A DNA stretch of 64,000 bases from Acutalibacteraceae bacterium (GCA_045647405.1 JAZRMI010000007.1:31895-95894), one strand, 5' to 3'. Shown: positions 26,188-30,167, numbered from the stretch's first letter. Translations and numbers: made by a program. Notes: generated by a model from the letters alone, not told the origin.

Positions 26188-26216
26188 TTGACAACCGCCA
26201 TTATTTAGTGTATAAT
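26188..26216 (+). promoter_or_regulatory. Consensus sigma-A promoter for the structured RNA / tRNA-Pro transcript
   Basis: TTGACA (26188-26193), a 17-nt spacer, then TATAAT (26211-26216). Both hexamers match the consensus perfectly. Confidence 0.8.
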
Positions 26217-26274
26217 CAATGCTGTTCGATTGATAAGATTAAGTTGAAACAAATTGAAATTTAATTTAATATTT

Positions 26275-26446
26275 CGAGGTGTGGCGCAGCCCTTAGCACA
26301 CTAGTTTTGGGTGAGGTTGCGAGTGCGTCCAGTGGACGATTCAACGAGCATAACGAAGCGCCGCGGTCAAAATTTATCGACGCTCCAAGGCGAAATAAAT
26401 TTTGGGCACCGCAAGAGGGTTACCAAAACCCTTAAACTAATTGGTC
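26275..26446 (+). ncRNA. Unclassified structured RNA that begins as a tRNA-Pro 5'-half look-alike (not a complete tRNA)
   Basis: 26275-26289 is identical to tRNA-Pro 26466-26480, and 26299-26311 is identical to 26490-26502 (anticodon stem 5' arm plus loop). It then diverges into a visibly GC-richer segment. Nested complementary pairs in that segment: 26304-26310/26423-26429, 26317-26326/26406-26414, hairpin 26327-26337, and 26359-26368/26379-26392. There is no ATG on the plus strand and no 3' acceptor strand. Confidence 0.45.
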
Positions 26447-26465
26447 TTTTTAAACAACTTAACAT

Positions 26466-26541
26466 CGAGGTGTGGCGCAGTTGGTAGCGCACTAGTTTTG
26501 GGAACTAGATGCCGCAGGTTCGAGCCCTGTCACCTCGACCA
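26466..26541 (+). tRNA. tRNA-Pro (anticodon UGG), CCA encoded
   Basis: Cloverleaf read by hand. Acceptor CGAGGTG/CACCTCG, D arm GCGC-AGTTGGTA-GCGC, anticodon arm CTAGT-TTTGGGA-ACTAG (TGG at 26499-26501, G37), T arm GCAGG-TTCGAGC-CCTGT, then A-CCA. Confidence 0.93.
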
Positions 26542-26550
26542 TTTGATTTG

Positions 26551-26598
26551 GTTCTGTTTTTTGAACATTTTTTTCGAAAAACAGAACTTTTTCTTTTT
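26551..26598 (+). terminator. Rho-independent terminator after tRNA-Pro
   Basis: gttctgttttt ... aaaaacagaac stem followed by tttttcttttt. Confidence 0.8.
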
Positions 26599-26651
26599 AT
26601 AAACCCTTTATTTATGCGCATTCACATTCTCCAATCGATTTTTGCTGATTC
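26594..26651 (+). repeat. Flank module copy A (tttttataaaccctttatttatgcg...ttctccaatcgatttttgctgattc)
   Basis: Direct, diverged repeat of 28016-28073 (about two-thirds to three-quarters identical by eye). Its first part (26601-26618) recurs at 29841-29858. Confidence 0.7.
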
Positions 26652-27945
26652 TGAAAAAATTTAAATTTGAAAATAAAAAATTTATTAAGTGCAGCTATAT
26701 CAACACCCCTTTCTCATTTATTCTTGCCATATAATTCCTCAAATCTAACGGGAGATTTAAGTCCTAAAGTGCTATGTGGACGGCGTTCATTATAGAATTT
26801 TATATACTCATCTACCGATTTTTTAAAATCGTTTTCCGAAGTGTAATTTCTCCTATATGCTTCCTCTCTTTTAAAAGAAGCAAAAAACGATTCCATTACA
26901 GCATTATCACAAGGTCTGCCAGAATTAGAAAACGATTGGGTAGCAGAACAATTACTCAAAATTTTTCTAAATGTTTCTGAAATATACTGTGAACCTCTAT
27001 CGCTATGAAACATTAATCCCTCTGGATTGCCTCGTTCTTCAAATGCTTTGCGAAACGATGCAGTAACCAAATTTGTACTACATTTTCTTGAAACTTTATA
27101 TCCAACAACTCTTCGTGAATACAAATCTAATATTACACAAAGATATACTGGATAGTTTTTGAGTTTAAAATATGTAATGTCACTTACCCATTTCTGATTC
27201 ATTCGCTCTGCTTTAAACTCTCTGTTTAGCAAATTACGTTTCATGCGGTCTTTATGCATTCTATAATAACTTTTAGCACCACGTTGAATACTCTCAAGAC
27301 CTAATTCATCCATAATCTTTTTTACTCTGCGTTTGCTTACTATTACTCCGTTCTCAGCTAATACTGCACTAATCTTTGCCGCTCCATACCGTTGTTGTCC
27401 TTCGTCAAAGACCTCTTGTACTTTTAACATTGTTTGTGCTTGTTCTTCTAAAAACTTTGTTCTATCTGCTTTTCTGAAAATATGGTTGTAAAATGTACCT
27501 CTATCCACATTCAAAGCCTCGCACAGTTCACGAACACTATATAATTCTGTTTGCTCATACAACTGTGCAAGAATTCTTAGTCTTTTTTGCAAATCAATTT
27601 CATTAAGCAATTTAGAAAGTTTAATGATTTCTAATAAATGTTGGTTTCTAGCATATTTCCTTTTTAGTTCTTTAAATTCCGATAAAGTAAACTGCTCCTC
27701 CAAAGGTCCATGAATGGTATAATCGTTCACCCAGCGAGCGACTGTTGATACAGCCACATTATATTTTTCCGCCGCAAAAACCAAAGAGTGTTTCTTTTCG
27801 TAGCAAGCTACAACTTGGTTTTTAAATTCCTCGGGATACTGTTTTGACATGGTAAAAACTCCTTTCAATTACTGAAAGTATTTTACCATAATTCTGATTT
27901 TTCAAAAATCAGACCGAATGAAAACCGGAAATCTGACCGATTGGA
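26630..27945 (-). mobile_element. IS3-family insertion sequence (boundaries tentative)
   Basis: Contains the transposase gene. Reading inward, both ends start with TCCAATCG and later share ctgatt(c/t)t(g)aaaaat, but the inverted repeats are imperfect and gapped, and I saw no clear target-site duplication. Confidence 0.55.
26714..27850 (-). CDS. IS3-family transposase, HTH and DDE (rve) domains in one continuous ORF
   Basis: HTH N-terminus (YPEEFKNQVVACY...VAVSTVARWV). The rve core has WVSDITYF, LDLYSRRVVGY, HSDRGSQY and DNAVMESFFASFKRE. Start taken at MSKQY (ATG 27850) after AAAGGAG. Confidence 0.9.
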   Translation of the reverse strand: MSKQYPEEFKNQVVACYEKKHSLVFAAEKYNVAVSTVARWVNDYTIHGPLEEQFTLSEFKELKRKYARNQHLLEIIKLSKLLNEIDLQKRLRILAQLYEQTELYSVRELCEALNVDRGTFYNHIFRKADRTKFLEEQAQTMLKVQEVFDEGQQRYGAAKISAVLAENGVIVSKRRVKKIMDELGLESIQRGAKSYYRMHKDRMKRNLLNREFKAERMNQKWVSDITYFKLKNYPVYLCVILDLYSRRVVGYKVSRKCSTNLVTASFRKAFEERGNPEGLMFHSDRGSQYISETFRKILSNCSATQSFSNSGRPCDNAVMESFFASFKREEAYRRNYTSENDFKKSVDEYIKFYNERRPHSTLGLKSPVRFEELYGKNK

Positions 27946-28015: not shown

Positions 28016-28073
28016 CTTTTTTATAAACGCTTTTTAGCTTTTTTACGTTCTCCAGTAGAATTTTTACTGATTC
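28016..28073 (+). repeat. Flank module copy B
   Basis: tttttataaacgctttttagc...ttctccagtagaatttttactgattc, preceded by the terminator-like hairpin aaatgccga-tt-tcggcattt (27995-28014). Confidence 0.7.
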
Positions 28074-28139
28074 AAAATTATTAAACAAACAAATGGCATC
28101 ACTCCTTTCTTATTTGTTTTTATCATAAAACAGCGCATG

Positions 28140-28168
28140 TTTACTATTGGAAAATTTTATGGTATAAT
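28140..28168 (+). promoter_or_regulatory. Putative sigma-A promoter (extended -10) for the Zn-ribbon/kinase cassette
   Basis: TTTACT (28140-28145), a 17-nt spacer ending in TGg, then TATAAT (28163-28168). Lies about 40 nt upstream of the 28207 start. Confidence 0.6.
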
Positions 28169-28206
28169 GTCATAAAAGATATTTATAAAAGTGAGGTGCC
28201 GAGGTT

Positions 28207-28377
28207 ATGGCAGAATGGAATTGGGAAAAGAACAATGGATTAACTCCTATGGATGTAGCGCCTAATAGTCATAAGAAGGTTTGGTGGAAGTGTAACAAAG
28301 GGCATGAATGGCAAGCTATAATAGGCAATAGACACAAAGGGAACGGTTGCCCCATTTGCAGAAAAGAAAAAAGATAA
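28207..28377 (+). CDS. 56-aa stand-alone Zn-ribbon protein (single DUF4379-type 'probable zinc-ribbon' repeat)
   Basis: Below the ORF-track size cut-off, so translated by hand: MAEWNWEKNNGLTPMDVAPNSHKKVWWKCNKGHEWQAIIGNRHKGNGCPICRKEKR. It has the WWKC-x2-GH ... GCPxC pattern, and GTGAGGTG precedes the ATG. Confidence 0.65.
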   Translation: MAEWNWEKNNGLTPMDVAPNSHKKVWWKCNKGHEWQAIIGNRHKGNGCPICRKEKR

Positions 28378-28405
28378 TAATACTTATATTTAGGTGAAAG
28401 CTTAT

Positions 28406-29659
28406 ATGAACAAAATTACAGAAGTAACACGCAGAGACATCATTGATATTATCCGCAATGGATTTATTGGTACAGAGCTAGAGCTTAAAGTCAATTACTA
28501 CGAACATCCATATCCCGAGGAAGTTACAGTTGACTATCATATGTGTTATCATGGACGTCTCAATGAAATTGACTTTTTATCAAGAGTTTATAATCTTAGT
28601 AATATGCCTTCCACGGACAGTAGATTTAAGGATGCGGAAGGTGATATTTGGCAACATACTATTAATAACGATGATTGGGAAGATGGTTGGGTCTTTACTG
28701 ATCATCGTTTCGGTCTTGTGAACGGCGATGACGAAACGCTATTAAAATTTCTATGTGAAATGTTTCATCCTGTTGTTAGAAACGAACACCAACCCTGGAA
28801 AAAATTCTTGGAAACTTTTAATGAACTTCTAAAGCATGATGGATATGAGATTATAGAAAAAAGTCATATATCCGGACGTTCTGTTTATGGTTGGCAGACC
28901 ATAGTACCAAATACTATTGCCATACCCAAAGCAACAAATCCCACATACGAATTAAAATTAATTGGTGAAGGATCATACGCACAAGTTTTTAAGTATAAAG
29001 ATTCTTTCTATGATACTTTTTTCGTTGTTAAACGGGCAAAAAAAGATTTAACAGAAAAAGAACTAACTCGCTTTAAGCGTGAATACGAACAAATGAAAAC
29101 GCTTCATTCTCCGTATATAGTCGAGGTGTATTCATACAACGGTAGCTCTAACGAGTATGTAATGGAGTATATGGATTGTACTCTCGATAAATATATATCT
29201 GAAAACAATGGAAAACTCACTTTCTCACAAAGAAAAGGTATTGTTTCTCAAATGCTACGAGCATTTAAATACATACACTCAAAAGATTTATTGCACAGGG
29301 ATATTTGTCCCAAAAATGTATTGCTTCGGCTGTATGATGATGTAAGGGTAGTAAAAATTTCCGATTTTGGATTAGTAAAAATACCCGACACAGATTTAAC
29401 ATCTATTAATACAGAATATAAGGGATATTTTAATGACCCTGAACTTCGTTTGGAGGGTTTCAACACATATTGTATAATTCATGAAACCTACGCCATTACC
29501 CGTCTTGTGTATTACGTAATGACAGGTAGAACTAATACCGAAAGAATTGAAAACCCTTCTCTGAAGGAGTTTGTAAAACGTGGACTTTCTTCGGATAAGA
29601 AAAAAAGGTTTCAAGATATCGATGAATTAACATCAGCATTTAACCTAATTCAAGAATAA
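28406..29659 (+). CDS. Cytosolic Ser/Thr protein kinase fused to an about 175-aa N-terminal domain (AbiJ-NTD4-like by recollection)
   Basis: The Hanks kinase motif set is complete: GEGSYAQV (G-loop), VVKRAK (beta3 Lys), FKREYEQM (alphaC Glu), HRDICPKNVLL, ISDFGL and NDPE. No TM or PASTA domains. N-domain motif: IDFLSRVYNLSNMPSTDSRFKDAEGDIWQHTINNDDWEDGWVFTDHRF...LLKFLCEMFHPVVR. Start set at ATG 28406 (AGGTGA 8 nt upstream); the ORF track starts at GTG 28394. Confidence 0.85.
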   Translation: MNKITEVTRRDIIDIIRNGFIGTELELKVNYYEHPYPEEVTVDYHMCYHGRLNEIDFLSRVYNLSNMPSTDSRFKDAEGDIWQHTINNDDWEDGWVFTDHRFGLVNGDDETLLKFLCEMFHPVVRNEHQPWKKFLETFNELLKHDGYEIIEKSHISGRSVYGWQTIVPNTIAIPKATNPTYELKLIGEGSYAQVFKYKDSFYDTFFVVKRAKKDLTEKELTRFKREYEQMKTLHSPYIVEVYSYNGSSNEYVMEYMDCTLDKYISENNGKLTFSQRKGIVSQMLRAFKYIHSKDLLHRDICPKNVLLRLYDDVRVVKISDFGLVKIPDTDLTSINTEYKGYFNDPELRLEGFNTYCIIHETYAITRLVYYVMTGRTNTERIENPSLKEFVKRGLSSDKKKRFQDIDELTSAFNLIQE

Positions 29660-29665
29660 CATTTT

Positions 29666-29715
29666 TGATTTGGTTCTGTTTTTCGAAAAAATGTTCAAAA
29701 AACAGAACCAAATCA
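29666..29715. repeat. Perfect 18-bp-stem palindrome related to the tRNA-Pro terminator
   Basis: TGATTTGGTTCTGTTTTT - 14-nt loop - AAAAACAGAACCAAATCA. The left arm and its 5' flank repeat 26539-26561. The loop is the reverse complement of the loop at 26562-26576 (one A shorter). Confidence 0.85.
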
Positions 29716-30167
29716 CATGGTGACAGTGACGATATTCGAACCACTAACCATATATTTTTGATAATTTTGATTGGAAAATGTGATATTTTAGGTCGTTTTT
29801 TGTTATATAAATGGGGATATGTACTGTTTTTGACTGCTAAAAACCCTTTATTTATGCGGTTTTTCCCAATTTTACTATAACGCTACTCCGACCAATATCG
29901 GAAATCCACTGATGAAAATCGGTGGATTTTTGATTTTGTATTATTCAATTTTTATAATTCCACAATTAAATTTTAATACATTCACTGTACTATAAAACAG
30001 ACTTTAACCTCTAAAAATTGATATTTTTTGAAATTTTGTTATTTTTTGTTTACTGCGTATTAAATTTCGACTGCTTTACCTCCATATGTATGGAGGAACT
30101 GTCACATTTGTATATCCATTTTAAAATTGGTAAGAATATCTAATACAAAATAAACGGAGGTAATAAA

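Follow-up and report, generated by a model that had tools for sequence, protein, structure and literature searches.

An AbiJ_NTD3-kinase fusion gene at a tRNA-Pro locus as a candidate single-gene defence system

To our knowledge, the documented cases of kinase-based abortive infection are very few and come down essentially to Stk2. Depardieu et al. reportedly described this Staphylococcus epidermidis protein in 2016 as an abortive-infection kinase that is triggered by a phage protein. In bona fide AbiJ, an AbiJ_NTD3 domain precedes a HEPN RNase. Defence by AbiJ and by SadR has been shown experimentally (PMC13590631, PMC13064643), AbiJ-NTD3 is present in 510 of 2,815 Abi_C proteins (PMC13590631), and lactococcal AbiJ escape mutants map to phage ssDNA-annealing proteins (PMC13064643). 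Kinases fused to AbiJ-NTD1 or AbiJ-NTD3 were listed as predicted Abi-type toxins by Anantharaman, Makarova, Burroughs, Koonin and Aravind in 2013 (Biol Direct 8:15; PMC3710099), with the N-terminal domain predicted to recognise a viral target and the enzymatic domain to be the toxin.

Here we consider a locus in 64,000 nucleotides of DNA from an Acutalibacteraceae bacterium (the window), in which a 56-aa ORF (28207-28377, + strand) is followed, after 28 nt, by a 417-aa ORF (28406-29659, + strand). The initial annotation had correctly placed both ORFs and a single promoter ahead of them, as we could confirm from the sequence and a promoter scan, and had interpreted the pair as a candidate self-contained defence cassette, the domain fusion with a Zn-ribbon partner not being known to it from any described system. 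We note that the NTD3-kinase architecture was already predicted in 2013 (PMC3710099), and that the two-gene idea behind its apparent newness fails. The reading that we favour, at a probability of roughly 60%, is a mobile single-gene NTD3-kinase defence candidate carried in an integrase-less tRNA-Pro element, with the 56-aa ORF outside the mechanism. Comparison of related loci suggests that the larger gene is a good defence candidate and that the small zinc-finger gene is probably not its dedicated partner. The family joins a complete Hanks kinase to a sensor domain that is also used with the AbiJ HEPN RNase, and could, if put to the test, reveal both what NTD3 senses and whether one sensor triggers two quite different killing chemistries.

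The kinase and its N-terminal domain

The larger ORF (28406..29659, + strand) encodes a fusion of AbiJ_NTD3 with a Hanks Ser/Thr kinase, as judged from Pfam, homologues and an AF2 model. The protein kinase domain spans residues 183-387 (28952..29566, + strand; PF00069, Pkinase, E 2.1e-30) and contains every Hanks motif that had been listed for it, namely GEGSYAQV at residues 187-194 (G-loop, 187-192), VVK with K209 as its lysine, HRDICPKN at residues 297-304 (nt 29294-29317, + strand, with HRD 297-299 at nt 29294-29302), DFG at residues 320-322 (nt 29363-29371, + strand) and DPE at residues 344-346. Across 27 homologues, which share 53-85% identity with the window protein, K209, E226, H297-R298-D299, N304, D320-F321-G322 and the activation-loop threonine T332 are invariant; more than 120 homologues have the NTD3-kinase architecture, and the kinase gene is under strong purifying selection (dN/dS 0.04-0.07). 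The full-length AF2 model (pLDDT 84.9) has a kinase fold, with inter-domain geometry that is uncertain at a pTM of 0.54. Foldseek matched the kinase model to PknB, Stk1 and WNK1 at E ~1e-11, and a PDB sequence search with the full 417-aa protein matched kinases alone. No transmembrane segment was found in the protein (top 19-residue Kyte-Doolittle mean, 0.75), no PASTA domain matched, and no phosphatase (PP2C) gene is present among the ORFs within ~5 kb, where the neighbours are tRNA, IS3, DUF4379, Mn-catalase, ClpC and 5'-nucleotidase; the view that this is unlike a PrkC-type housekeeping kinase consequently stands.

Residues 3-175 (28412..28930, + strand) match AbiJ_NTD3 (PF18860) at E 7.2e-57 and 191.9 bits, as compared to a cut-off of 32.5. 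This profile search upheld the initial assignment of the region to the AbiJ N-terminal domain set, with the correction that it is NTD3 and not NTD4. The invariant polar residues of the domain are D71, R73, D80, H84, N88, D90, W91, W95, D99, R101, E118 and R125. An AF2 model of NTD3 by itself reached a pLDDT of 89.9 and a pTM of 0.82, and a Foldseek search of the PDB with it returned no neighbour (best E 0.8, TM <0.22), so that the suggested modelling check recovered the kinase fold and left NTD3 without a structural neighbour in the PDB. We predict that NTD3 is the sensor of the 417-aa protein. Elsewhere the partner of NTD3 (53-56% identity) is NTD4 or the HEPN domain Abi_C; for instance, the NTD3 of an NTD3-Abi_C protein encoded at L040 shares 56% identity with that of the window, and among the best 150 NTD3 cluster representatives Abi_C is present in 37 and a kinase in 14. 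The window protein itself has no match to Abi_C (PF14355), its C-terminal half being the kinase. The same kinase clade (45-65% identity) is found at 75 loci with another N-domain of ~150 aa that has no Pfam match, and at one locus fused to NACHT. On these domain combinations, sensor and effector swap independently.

We propose that in the uninfected cell NTD3 would hold the kinase off, and that recognition by NTD3 of a phage-derived protein or nucleic acid would allow the kinase to be released or to oligomerise and to autophosphorylate on Thr332. The active kinase might then phosphorylate host and/or phage proteins broadly and so halt growth or phage development, in the manner of Stk2, and the 56-aa ORF would take no part in this mechanism. 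By analogy with AbiJ, phage ssDNA-annealing proteins offer a lead, and only a lead, as to what the trigger may be.

The tRNA-Pro element and its small DUF4379 gene

Firmicutes harbour tRNA-targeting genomic islands as well as integrase-less cis-mobilisable elements (CIMEs). The cassette region of the window, which is flanked by genes for a DnaD-like protein, 5'-nucleotidase, Mn-catalase, ClpC and McsB and hence interrupts housekeeping surroundings as first described, follows a tRNA-Pro(UGG) gene (26466..26541, + strand; ARAGORN; Rfam tRNA, 67.4 bits), the 3' end of which forms an attL-like left boundary. A terminator hairpin lies directly after the tRNA (26542..26588, + strand; terminator scan and repeats) and recurs in a second copy after the kinase. 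Between tRNA-Pro and the cassette is an ORF for an IS3-family transposase of 384 aa (26714..27868, - strand; Pfam rve E 1.9e-26, with HTH_21, rve_3 and HTH_Tnp_1), for which no clear terminal inverted repeats were found; the tRNA gene and IS3 element reported beside the gene pair are thus both there.

Ahead of the small gene is a conserved leader (28019..28206, + strand) that includes its promoter and ribosome-binding site. The promoter-like site (TTTACT-17-TATAAT with a TG extension, 28140-28168; 10/12 matches in the promoter scan) has its -35 at 28140-28145 and its extended -10 at 28161-28168, both on the + strand. Such sites number 21 across the region as compared to 17.9 +/- 4.8 expected, which is no excess over chance, but this one is better backed because the leader of ~190 nt is ~90% conserved in two other genomes (L001 8341-8527 and L189 5811-6000), and this despite different downstream cargo. 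An exact 24-mer of the leader had no match in viral contigs, and a consensus fold of the three near-identical sequences held no informative covariation.

Beyond the kinase, an inverted partial tRNA-Pro 3' copy (T-arm to CCA) together with the 26542-26588 hairpin occupies 29664..29742 (- strand; repeats), a stretch that is missing from L001 and L002. There follows a conserved non-coding element, here termed Y (29807..29884, + strand; blastn and sequence reading), which closes the cargo slot and which is found after the kinase in L001 and L002 and after an unrelated gene in L189 and L190. Y is itself closed by a 10-nt tRNA-Pro 3' copy, ACTCCGACCA (29885..29894, + strand), an att-core-like right boundary that was read in four genomes; the same core, only 10 nt in length, also closes Y in L001, L002 and L189. 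Next is a further terminator hairpin, X (29895..29960, + strand; terminator scan 29897-29934, and blastn), and in blastn window 29885-29960 corresponds to L001 8165-8240, a segment made up of the tRNA's final 10 nt and the terminator that follows. X stands directly after tRNA-Pro in L001 and L189 and after the cassette in the window, and the order Y-core-X in the window accordingly differs from that in L001 and L189. The bracketing repeats that had been noted do exist, one being inverted (26538-26587 and 29721-29673, 96% over 50 nt) and the other identical throughout (26601-26618 and 29841-29858, 100%). Rfam, at gathering and E-value thresholds, recognised the tRNA alone and left the leader, Y, X and a tRNA-like stretch at 26274 unmatched.

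No integrase is encoded between 26542 and 29894 in the window; in L001 a C-terminal integrase fragment lies in the next island segment, in tandem with the element. From the arrangement of these parts the cassette appears to sit in a small integrase-less element at a tRNA-Pro hotspot, with the kinase as cargo of the slot, and the element in the window appears to have been further rearranged by IS3 insertion and inverted duplication. The leader with its promoter and the 56-aa ORF would head the slot, and Y, ending in the tRNA-Pro 3' copy, would close it. Window and L001 share 94.9% identity over the cassette DNA, as compared to 80% over the flanking catalase gene, which points to recent transfer. 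The kinase gene is more AT-rich than its surroundings, as had been claimed, but only marginally so (GC 0.342 as compared to 0.379 for the window; GC3 0.275 as compared to 0.29-0.41 in neighbours). The locus may illustrate an exchange of defence cargo at a tRNA hotspot in which the flanks stay conserved.

The small gene (28207..28377, + strand) encodes a single-repeat DUF4379 protein, a treble-clef zinc finger (Pfam DUF4379, E 5.7e-21). Its PHROG matches are to endonuclease families 681 and 559, at their zinc-finger repeats, it has no EDxHD/Vsr-type nuclease domain, and nothing in PADLOC or NCBIfam matched it. Upstream of the L001 kinase is a longer form, a protein of 481 aa in which DUF4379 occurs five times and a REase-like domain lies at the centre. 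The nuclease domain shows in weak matches, to PF18741 at E 1.2e-3 and to PHROG 3339 'homing endonuclease' at E 2.4e-13; the matched PHROGs are annotated 'HNH endonuclease', 'endonuclease' and 'homing endonuclease'. We considered the 56-aa ORF as a simple deletion of this L001 gene and rejected it, its ends matching L001 and its middle (28235-28335) not. That middle matches instead the last-repeat type of L002, P0121 and P0122, and because of this repeat type and of the existence of a small-form family (39 small stand-alone relatives of 52-96 aa, which retain the N-terminus and C-terminal tail of the long proteins) we favour a collapse or derivation within the DUF4379 family over a recent deletion of the L001 allele. 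The 56-aa ORF accordingly looks to be a single-repeat derivative of proteins that combine DUF4379 repeats with Vsr/REase-like domains, a homing-endonuclease-like multi-repeat family, and does not appear to be kinase-specific. Homing activity of the bacterial DUF4379-repeat family is itself a prediction from resemblance.

Might these small proteins nonetheless do something for the genes behind them? A more general proposal is that the small DUF4379 protein is a DNA-binding regulator or recruitment factor for any downstream effector, domesticated from the DNA-binding repeat of a homing endonuclease, within a cargo-swapping defence platform. Purifying selection acts on the small single-repeat DUF4379 genes (dN/dS 0.09-0.20 among single-repeat forms, and 0.07-0.2 for the window ORF, values that are noisy at ~55 codons and with dS saturated in many pairs), the 39 relatives keep both termini, and differing cargo is framed by a conserved leader and Y. 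In four of five other contexts (L188, L189, L191 and L192) the small gene precedes, by 6-70 nt, a co-directional gene without a Pfam match, the products being mutually unrelated proteins of 231-267 aa; in the fifth, L194, no downstream gene follows. The L189 protein has the motif HELCH and that of L188 a two-TM N-terminus; that of L191 has the motif RNMVVH and weakly matches the profile of the Cas13a HEPN domain. That match, and one of the L192 protein to a PHROG of unknown function, were the sole useful ones, and no defence family was matched by the cargo proteins in Pfam, PADLOC, PDB sequences or PHROGs. Because of the purifying selection and of the co-directional downstream gene in four of five contexts, some general function with downstream genes is conceivable. 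We consider the full proposal unlikely, however, since it draws on five contexts only, most kinases of the family occur without a small DUF4379 gene, and the pattern would equally be expected of degenerate homing endonuclease genes that happen to lie next to arbitrary ones. Equally tentative is the broader picture of an integrase-less cargo-swapping mini-element at tRNA-Pro of gut Clostridia, built of the leader, the small DUF4379 gene (which would be a DNA-binding repeat of a homing endonuclease after loss of the nuclease) and Y with its tRNA-Pro 3' core. The zinc finger of such an element would regulate or help to mobilise the effectors. The effectors in such a picture would be the NTD3-kinase here and HExxH, HEPN-like and membrane proteins elsewhere.

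Genomic contexts of the kinase family

Across ~15 genomes the homologues of the kinase occur as single genes, and their surroundings are of a defence or mobile kind. Full-length homologues lie between hsdS and hsdR of type I R-M operons at L105, L186 and L187, with Hachiman HamA/B also at L187, AbiEii at L186, and a TIR gene at both L105 and L186. Others adjoin QatABCD and a PLD-helicase, AbiH, or integrases or transposases; the L001 kinase adjoins Mrr, an HsdM fragment and an integrase fragment, a homologue on an IMG/VR contig adjoins a C5-methylase and an integrase, and one homologue is on a conjugative, ICE-like element. By tblastn, relatives are carried by 110 plasmids, of which 77 are conjugative, and recombinases are frequent neighbours; the matches cover mostly the kinase domain alone, and at least 80% of the query in two. 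Another relative is on one Bacillus phage. Kinase-clade relatives, mostly with other N-terminal domains, are also found on Lactococcus dairy plasmids and Campylobacter conjugative plasmids, which suggests a possible practical reach. This check of neighbourhoods across genomes bears out the suspicion that the kinase belongs among defence islands and mobile elements. We regard it as a reasonable abortive-infection candidate, supported because it is not of the PrkC type, has an AbiJ N-domain and keeps defence and mobile neighbourhoods. We found no experimental test of the NTD3-kinase family in the literature.

Alternatively, the kinase might serve the mobile element itself, as an addiction toxin or regulator, or as a prophage kinase for superinfection exclusion or counter-defence. 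The plasmid relatives, the ICE-like element, the IMG/VR contigs and the Bacillus phage are all consistent with such a role, and defences can be disarmed by phage kinases (PMC13645617). We nevertheless think it improbable, given that no neighbour gene is conserved across the kinase homologues, so that no conserved adjacent antitoxin or partner is seen, that the repeated type I R-M, Hachiman, Qat, AbiH and AbiEii contexts point to host or element defence, and that the sensor domain is common to AbiJ, a defence protein.

Less probable again is the initial proposal of a two-gene defence system in which the Zn-ribbon protein would be dedicated to the kinase, as its co-sensor, regulator or antitoxin. 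The operon arrangement with its 28-nt gap and one promoter, the recurrence of the pairing in L002 and in L001, where the long form takes the place of the small one, and the purifying selection on the small ORF speak in its favour. Yet a DUF4379 profile found such a neighbour at L001 and L002 alone, the two closest kinase relatives, among 183 kinase-related loci. The 181 loci without one include L003, the kinase of which is 91% identical and which shares sequence with the window solely from 19 nt before the kinase ATG. In L189 what follows this leader and small gene is an unrelated gene of 240 aa, the family of the L001 nuclease-type protein has more than 7800 relatives that are unrelated to kinases, and none of 66 DUF4379 proteins on viral contigs has a kinase neighbour. 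The conservation of the small ORF with the kinase, which the initial annotation had itself singled out as a test of the idea, was not found in this survey, and the co-occurrence data appear to refute the dedicated pair largely.

That the protein is an ordinary host signalling Hanks kinase (for growth, sporulation or the cell wall), near a tRNA by chance, can be set aside as very improbable: in both sequence and fold its kinase domain is similar to PknB, Stk1 and StkP, but the hallmarks of such kinases (TM segment, PASTA domain, and a phosphatase partner within ~5 kb) are all absent, NCBIfam PknB_PASTA_kin scores 88.7 bits as compared to a cut-off of 450, the family is patchily distributed at variable positions on mobile elements, and the cassette is far more similar between genomes than its flank.

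Comparison with described systems

Having preferred a mobile single-gene defence candidate, we can place its parts beside what has been described. The putative element resembles a CIME in lying directly 3' of a tRNA gene, in its short direct tRNA 3' copy and in having no integrase of its own; it differs in that its repeat is 10 nt, its boundary order is permuted and it carries IS3 and an inverted duplication, and its mobility is presumed. The small ORF compares with the CapR/DUF4379-repeat homing endonucleases with EDxHD/Vsr-like domains (NAR 2025; PMC12350094), since it matches their repeats and the L001 protein has five such repeats and a REase-like domain; the window ORF differs in having one repeat and no nuclease domain.

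Among kinases, PknB, PrkC and Stk1 differ by the TM segment and PASTA domain that the window kinase lacks (NF033483, 88.7 bits as compared to a cut-off of 450). PD-T4-6, MADS mad6 and BREX PglW are defence-associated Hanks kinases whose profiles match the window kinase core, but these matches are fold-generic, with NCBIfam scores far under the cut-offs; the kinase is N-terminal in PD-T4-6 and C-terminal in the window, and mad6 and PglW are parts of multi-gene systems. Membership of PD-T4-6 was rejected, its profiles matching any Hanks kinase, including the housekeeping PknB in S. thermophilus, and so was a relationship to CapK/CapS, CapK being an anti-sigma-type kinase. Stk2 is likewise soluble, a Hanks kinase that has neither PASTA nor TM, and its PADLOC profile matches at E 4.9e-34, but the match is confined to the kinase core, at profile positions 128-354 of 500; Stk2 has no AbiJ_NTD3, and its own N- and C-terminal regions are unmatched in the window protein. 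The PADLOC/NCBIfam matches to Stk2, mad6 and PD-T4-6 thus all cover the generic kinase fold alone.

With AbiJ (Lactococcus Abi-859) and SadR (S. aureus) the window protein shares the type of N-terminal sensor, the single-gene organisation and the association with mobile elements, and it differs in its effector, which is a kinase without an Abi_C match where theirs is an Abi_C/HEPN RNase. The class listed by Anantharaman et al. was a computational listing of architectures without locus analysis, and is silent on a DUF4379 neighbour, a tRNA-Pro element and embedding in R-M operons. Its defining combination, an N-terminal AbiJ_NTD3 with a C-terminal Ser/Thr/Tyr-type kinase, is what the window protein has, and it is in this class that the candidate finds its closest described relatives.

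Architecture and constraint of the kinase protein

The larger of the two cassette ORFs (28406-29659, plus strand) encodes a 417-aa protein that is a complete RD-type Hanks kinase joined to the sensor domain of an abortive-infection family, and it is strongly constrained. Pfam places Pkinase over residues 183-387 (E 2e-30) and AbiJ_NTD3 (PF18860; here NTD3), a predicted sensor domain, over residues 3-175 (E 7e-57), so that the NTD4 assignment of the initial annotation was wrong. Its other structural statements held: both ORFs are where it had put them, with the 56-aa ORF (28207-28377, plus strand) ending 28 nt before the kinase ORF; every kinase motif that it cited is found in the sequence; and neither a PASTA domain nor a TM segment was found in the protein, nor a phosphatase gene among the neighbours of the cassette.

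More than 120 clusters of a large protein database, mostly from Clostridia, share the NTD3-kinase architecture at 52-97% identity. Among 27 aligned homologues the G-loop glycines, K209, E226, H297-R298-D299, N304 and D320-F321-G322 of the kinase domain are invariant, as are the activation-loop threonine T332 and, in NTD3, a polar set comprising D71, R73, D80, H84, N88, D90, W91, W95, D99, R101, E118 and R125; close relatives give a kinase dN/dS of 0.04-0.07. The AlphaFold2 model is confident (pLDDT 84.9), with disorder confined to the activation loop, and PknB, Stk1 and WNK1 can be superposed on its C-terminal half. Modelled alone, NTD3 forms an alpha/beta domain (pLDDT 89.9, pTM 0.82) for which no structural neighbour was found in the PDB. 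The kinase is a conserved and active-looking enzyme whose family is mobile. One homologue, in Gorillibacterium sp. (L009:10001-11253), is broken into ORFs of 133 and 197 aa and is probably a pseudogene.

The setting is as first described, with a tRNA-Pro(UGG) gene (26466-26541), an IS3-family transposase ORF (26714-27868, minus strand) and housekeeping flanks (a DnaD-like gene, 5'-nucleotidase, Mn-catalase, ClpC and McsB); the AT-richness then noted is only marginal (GC 0.342 for the kinase versus 0.379 for the window). A promoter scan returned a TTTACT-17-TATAAT site with TG extension (28140-28168, plus strand). Promoter-like sites of the region as a class are not above chance (21 found against 17.9 +/- 4.8 expected), and the approximately 190-nt leader that holds this site is about 90% identical to two other genomes. 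The conserved leader also contains an inverted repeat, AACAAACAA ... TTATTTGTT (28088-28122), and on its minus strand (28064-28138) a good ribosome-binding site with a putative 24-aa ORF, MRCFMIKTNKKGVMPFVCLIILNQ, of which the genome L189, sharing this leader, has a 31-aa version; with too little variation to judge them by, these are functional candidates at most.

The small DUF4379 gene

The 56-aa ORF matches DUF4379 (E 6e-21), annotated as a "probable treble clef zinc finger", and in our view its product is most likely a DNA-binding protein left over or derived from a gene of the homing-endonuclease type. In L001, whose kinase is 98% identical to that of the window in amino acids and 94.9% in nucleotides, the gene upstream of the kinase encodes 481 aa, with five DUF4379 repeats placed around an REase-like domain in the centre (PF18741, E 1.2e-3). 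The PHROG matches of this protein are annotated as HNH endonuclease, endonuclease and homing endonuclease, and its relatives, of 480-840 aa, number more than 7,800, with a precomputed PF18741 annotation for several of them. L001 8314-8536 matches the window's leader together with the first codons of the small ORF, whose last codons in turn match the end of the gene for the 481-aa protein. Proteins that combine CapR/DUF4379 repeats with an EDxHD/Vsr domain are described as a family of putative homing endonucleases in a 2025 paper (NAR, PMC12350094). On viral contigs the 66 DUF4379 proteins found all measure 156-865 aa, and none of them adjoins a kinase.

The ORF is nevertheless more than debris, and the small form makes up a family: 39 stand-alone relatives of 52-96 aa, 53-85% identical to it, retain the N-terminus, the basic tail at the C-terminus and a single repeat in which every zinc ligand is present, and the single-repeat forms have a dN/dS of about 0.1-0.2. 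Alternatively, the small protein might have a general role with whatever cargo lies downstream, which we regard as unlikely. In four cases (L188, L189/L190, L191 and L192/L193) a co-directional gene for a protein of 231-267 aa without a Pfam match comes 6-70 nt after the small gene, and three of these four proteins, aligned with that of L192 left out, are mutually unrelated. The 231-aa protein of L191 (L191:4877-5572) carries an RNMVVH motif (HEPN-like Rx4H) and matches the PADLOC Cas13a HEPN profile weakly (E 0.005). Elsewhere, a stand-alone 76-aa DUF4379 gene with no co-directional gene downstream lies just 3' of a type II-A CRISPR-Cas9 locus with Cas9, Cas1, Cas2 and Csn2 (L194:1-6231).

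A role specific to the kinase, and with it the two-gene defence system that had been proposed, is very improbable: the DUF4379 profile, run over every ORF of 183 kinase-related loci, matched in the two closest relatives L001 and L002 only, and in L003, with a 91% identical kinase, the upstream gene differs from the small ORF and similarity to the window begins only at 28387, 19 nt before the kinase ATG.

A cargo slot at tRNA-Pro

Comparison among genomes shows the locus to be a cargo slot within a small element located at tRNA-Pro, the least expected of its features. L001 has, in this order, tRNA-Pro(UGG), a terminator hairpin (X), the leader, the 481-aa gene, the kinase and a conserved non-coding element (Y); in L189 tRNA-Pro(GGG) is followed by X, the same leader, genes for a 72-aa DUF4379 protein and a 240-aa HExxH protein, and Y; and in L002 the order is small gene, kinase and Y. 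Homology between the window and L189 breaks off at the small-gene stop codon and picks up again at Y, which makes the kinase gene and the HExxH gene alternative cargo between conserved flanks. In four of four genomes the last 10 nt of Y copy the tRNA-Pro 3' end (core ACTCCGACCA, window 29885-29894), and the terminator hairpin that comes next is distinct in each.

In the window another hairpin (26542-26588) and then the IS3 element come after the tRNA-Pro, and X lies behind the Y-core (29895-29960); this Y-core-X order is the junction expected of a circular or tandem element of the L001 type. Directly 3' of the kinase stop, at 29664-29742, is an inverted copy of the tRNA-Pro from T-arm to CCA together with the hairpin of 26542-26588, which is absent in L001 and L002 and suggests that the locus underwent an inversion or a second integration. 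There is no integrase inside the window's unit of about 3.2 kb. In L001 the next island segment, which precedes the shared catalase gene, carries Mrr and a DUF3990-HTH gene together with fragments of an integrase and of HsdM; directly 3' of the cassette, separating it from the two fragments and Mrr, is a 385-aa ORF (L001:11649-12806) with no match in Pfam, PADLOC or PHROGs.

Upstream, in the region 26188-26465, we also observed a perfect sigma-70 promoter, TTGACA-17-TATAAT (26188-26216), ahead of a 38-nt copy of the tRNA-Pro 5' half (26274-26311; 87% identical, reaching to the anticodon), which is separated by about 150 nt of other sequence from the real tRNA-Pro. The arrangement recurs in L001 7810-8098, where the middle part has diverged, and Rfam gave no match for the region in the window.

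Exchangeable modules and defence contexts

Sensor and effector are modules that can be exchanged for one another's alternatives. NTD3 (53-56% identity) stands ahead of an Abi_C HEPN effector domain in L040 and of an NTD4-containing C-terminus in L041. When 1.84 billion cluster representatives were scanned in full with HMMER, NTD3 was recognised in 1,635 proteins with E no higher than 0.001 and in 474 with E no higher than 1e-30; the best 150 of the 1,635 include 37 with Abi_C, 27 with the L041-type C-terminus, 14 with a kinase and 73 fragments or other architectures. Conversely, in 75 of the loci examined (for instance L011:9746-10945, L026:9338-10756, L030, L033, L143, L165 and about 70 further loci, with plasmids such as NC_019431, pCIS7) the kinase clade (45-65% identity, residues about 170-415) is preceded by a different N-domain of about 150 aa, without a Pfam match and forming one sequence cluster in all 75 copies. 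This sister group, which is larger than the NTD3-kinases, has members on dairy plasmids of Lactococcus, on conjugative plasmids of Campylobacter and in one Bacillus phage, and might be the AbiJ-NTD1-kinase class of a 2013 paper. In L123 a kinase of the clade is placed behind a NACHT NTPase; this 682-aa fusion (L123:8666-10714) lies directly 3' of a 389-aa sister-group kinase (L123:7119-8288), making a tandem of two kinases from one clade.

The kinase moves among defence loci. Homologues lie in the orders HsdM-HsdS-TIR-kinase-HsdR (L105 and L186, orthologous at 76% nt, L186 with AbiEii too) and HsdM-HsdS-kinase-HsdR followed by Hachiman HamA/B (L187); between QatABCD with a PLD-helicase-DUF3427 protein upstream and NUDIX with an SF1 helicase downstream (L021); one gene away from AbiH (L003); on a conjugative element (L185); and near a type I R subunit and SF1 helicase (L005), a YhcG nuclease and RHS protein (L007), a 1540-aa SMEK protein (L008), a methylase and SNF2 helicase (L020), DpnII-MboI and CTD11/MC7 (L184), or integrases, an IS91 transposase and a C5-methylase (L006, L023, L024). 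By tblastn, 110 plasmids carry relatives of the kinase clade (Campylobacter 62, Lactococcus 26), 77 of them conjugative, with near-full-length versions on two Rhodococcus plasmids. No neighbour gene is conserved across the contexts examined. Homologues occur as single genes in defence islands and mobile elements, an association that is consistent but qualitative. In L105:6328-14469 and L186:4479-12616 hsdS and hsdR enclose both a TIR gene of the CAP12/Pycsar type and the gene for the NTD3-kinase, an arrangement preserved though the DNA is only about 76% identical; the two might act jointly or be independent passengers.

Sensor-kinase architecture and these contexts make the kinase a well-supported predicted defence candidate, as the initial annotation had suspected. 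We propose that NTD3 would hold the kinase autoinhibited until a phage component is bound, that activation would involve phosphorylation of T332, and that broad phosphorylation of host and/or phage proteins could then arrest the infected cell, as for Stk2.

The fusion had been thought undescribed, but Anantharaman et al. 2013 (PMC3710099) explicitly list both AbiJ-NTD1 and AbiJ-NTD3 fused to protein kinases; our literature searches found no experiment on an NTD3-kinase. Their proposal, that a viral target is sensed by the NTD and that toxicity resides in the enzymatic domain, follows the same architectural logic as the module swapping seen here. NTD3 is carried by 510 of 2,815 Abi_C proteins (PMC13590631), a group including AbiJ and SadR, for which defence is experimentally demonstrated (PMC13590631, PMC13064643); escape mutants of lactococcal AbiJ, whose NTD may or may not be NTD3, map to phage ssDNA-annealing proteins (PMC13064643), which makes such proteins a tentative candidate trigger here. 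The 417-aa kinase falls outside Stk2, PD-T4-6, AbiJ proper and the PknB-type kinases; it belongs, as a new member, to the class recognised computationally in 2013.
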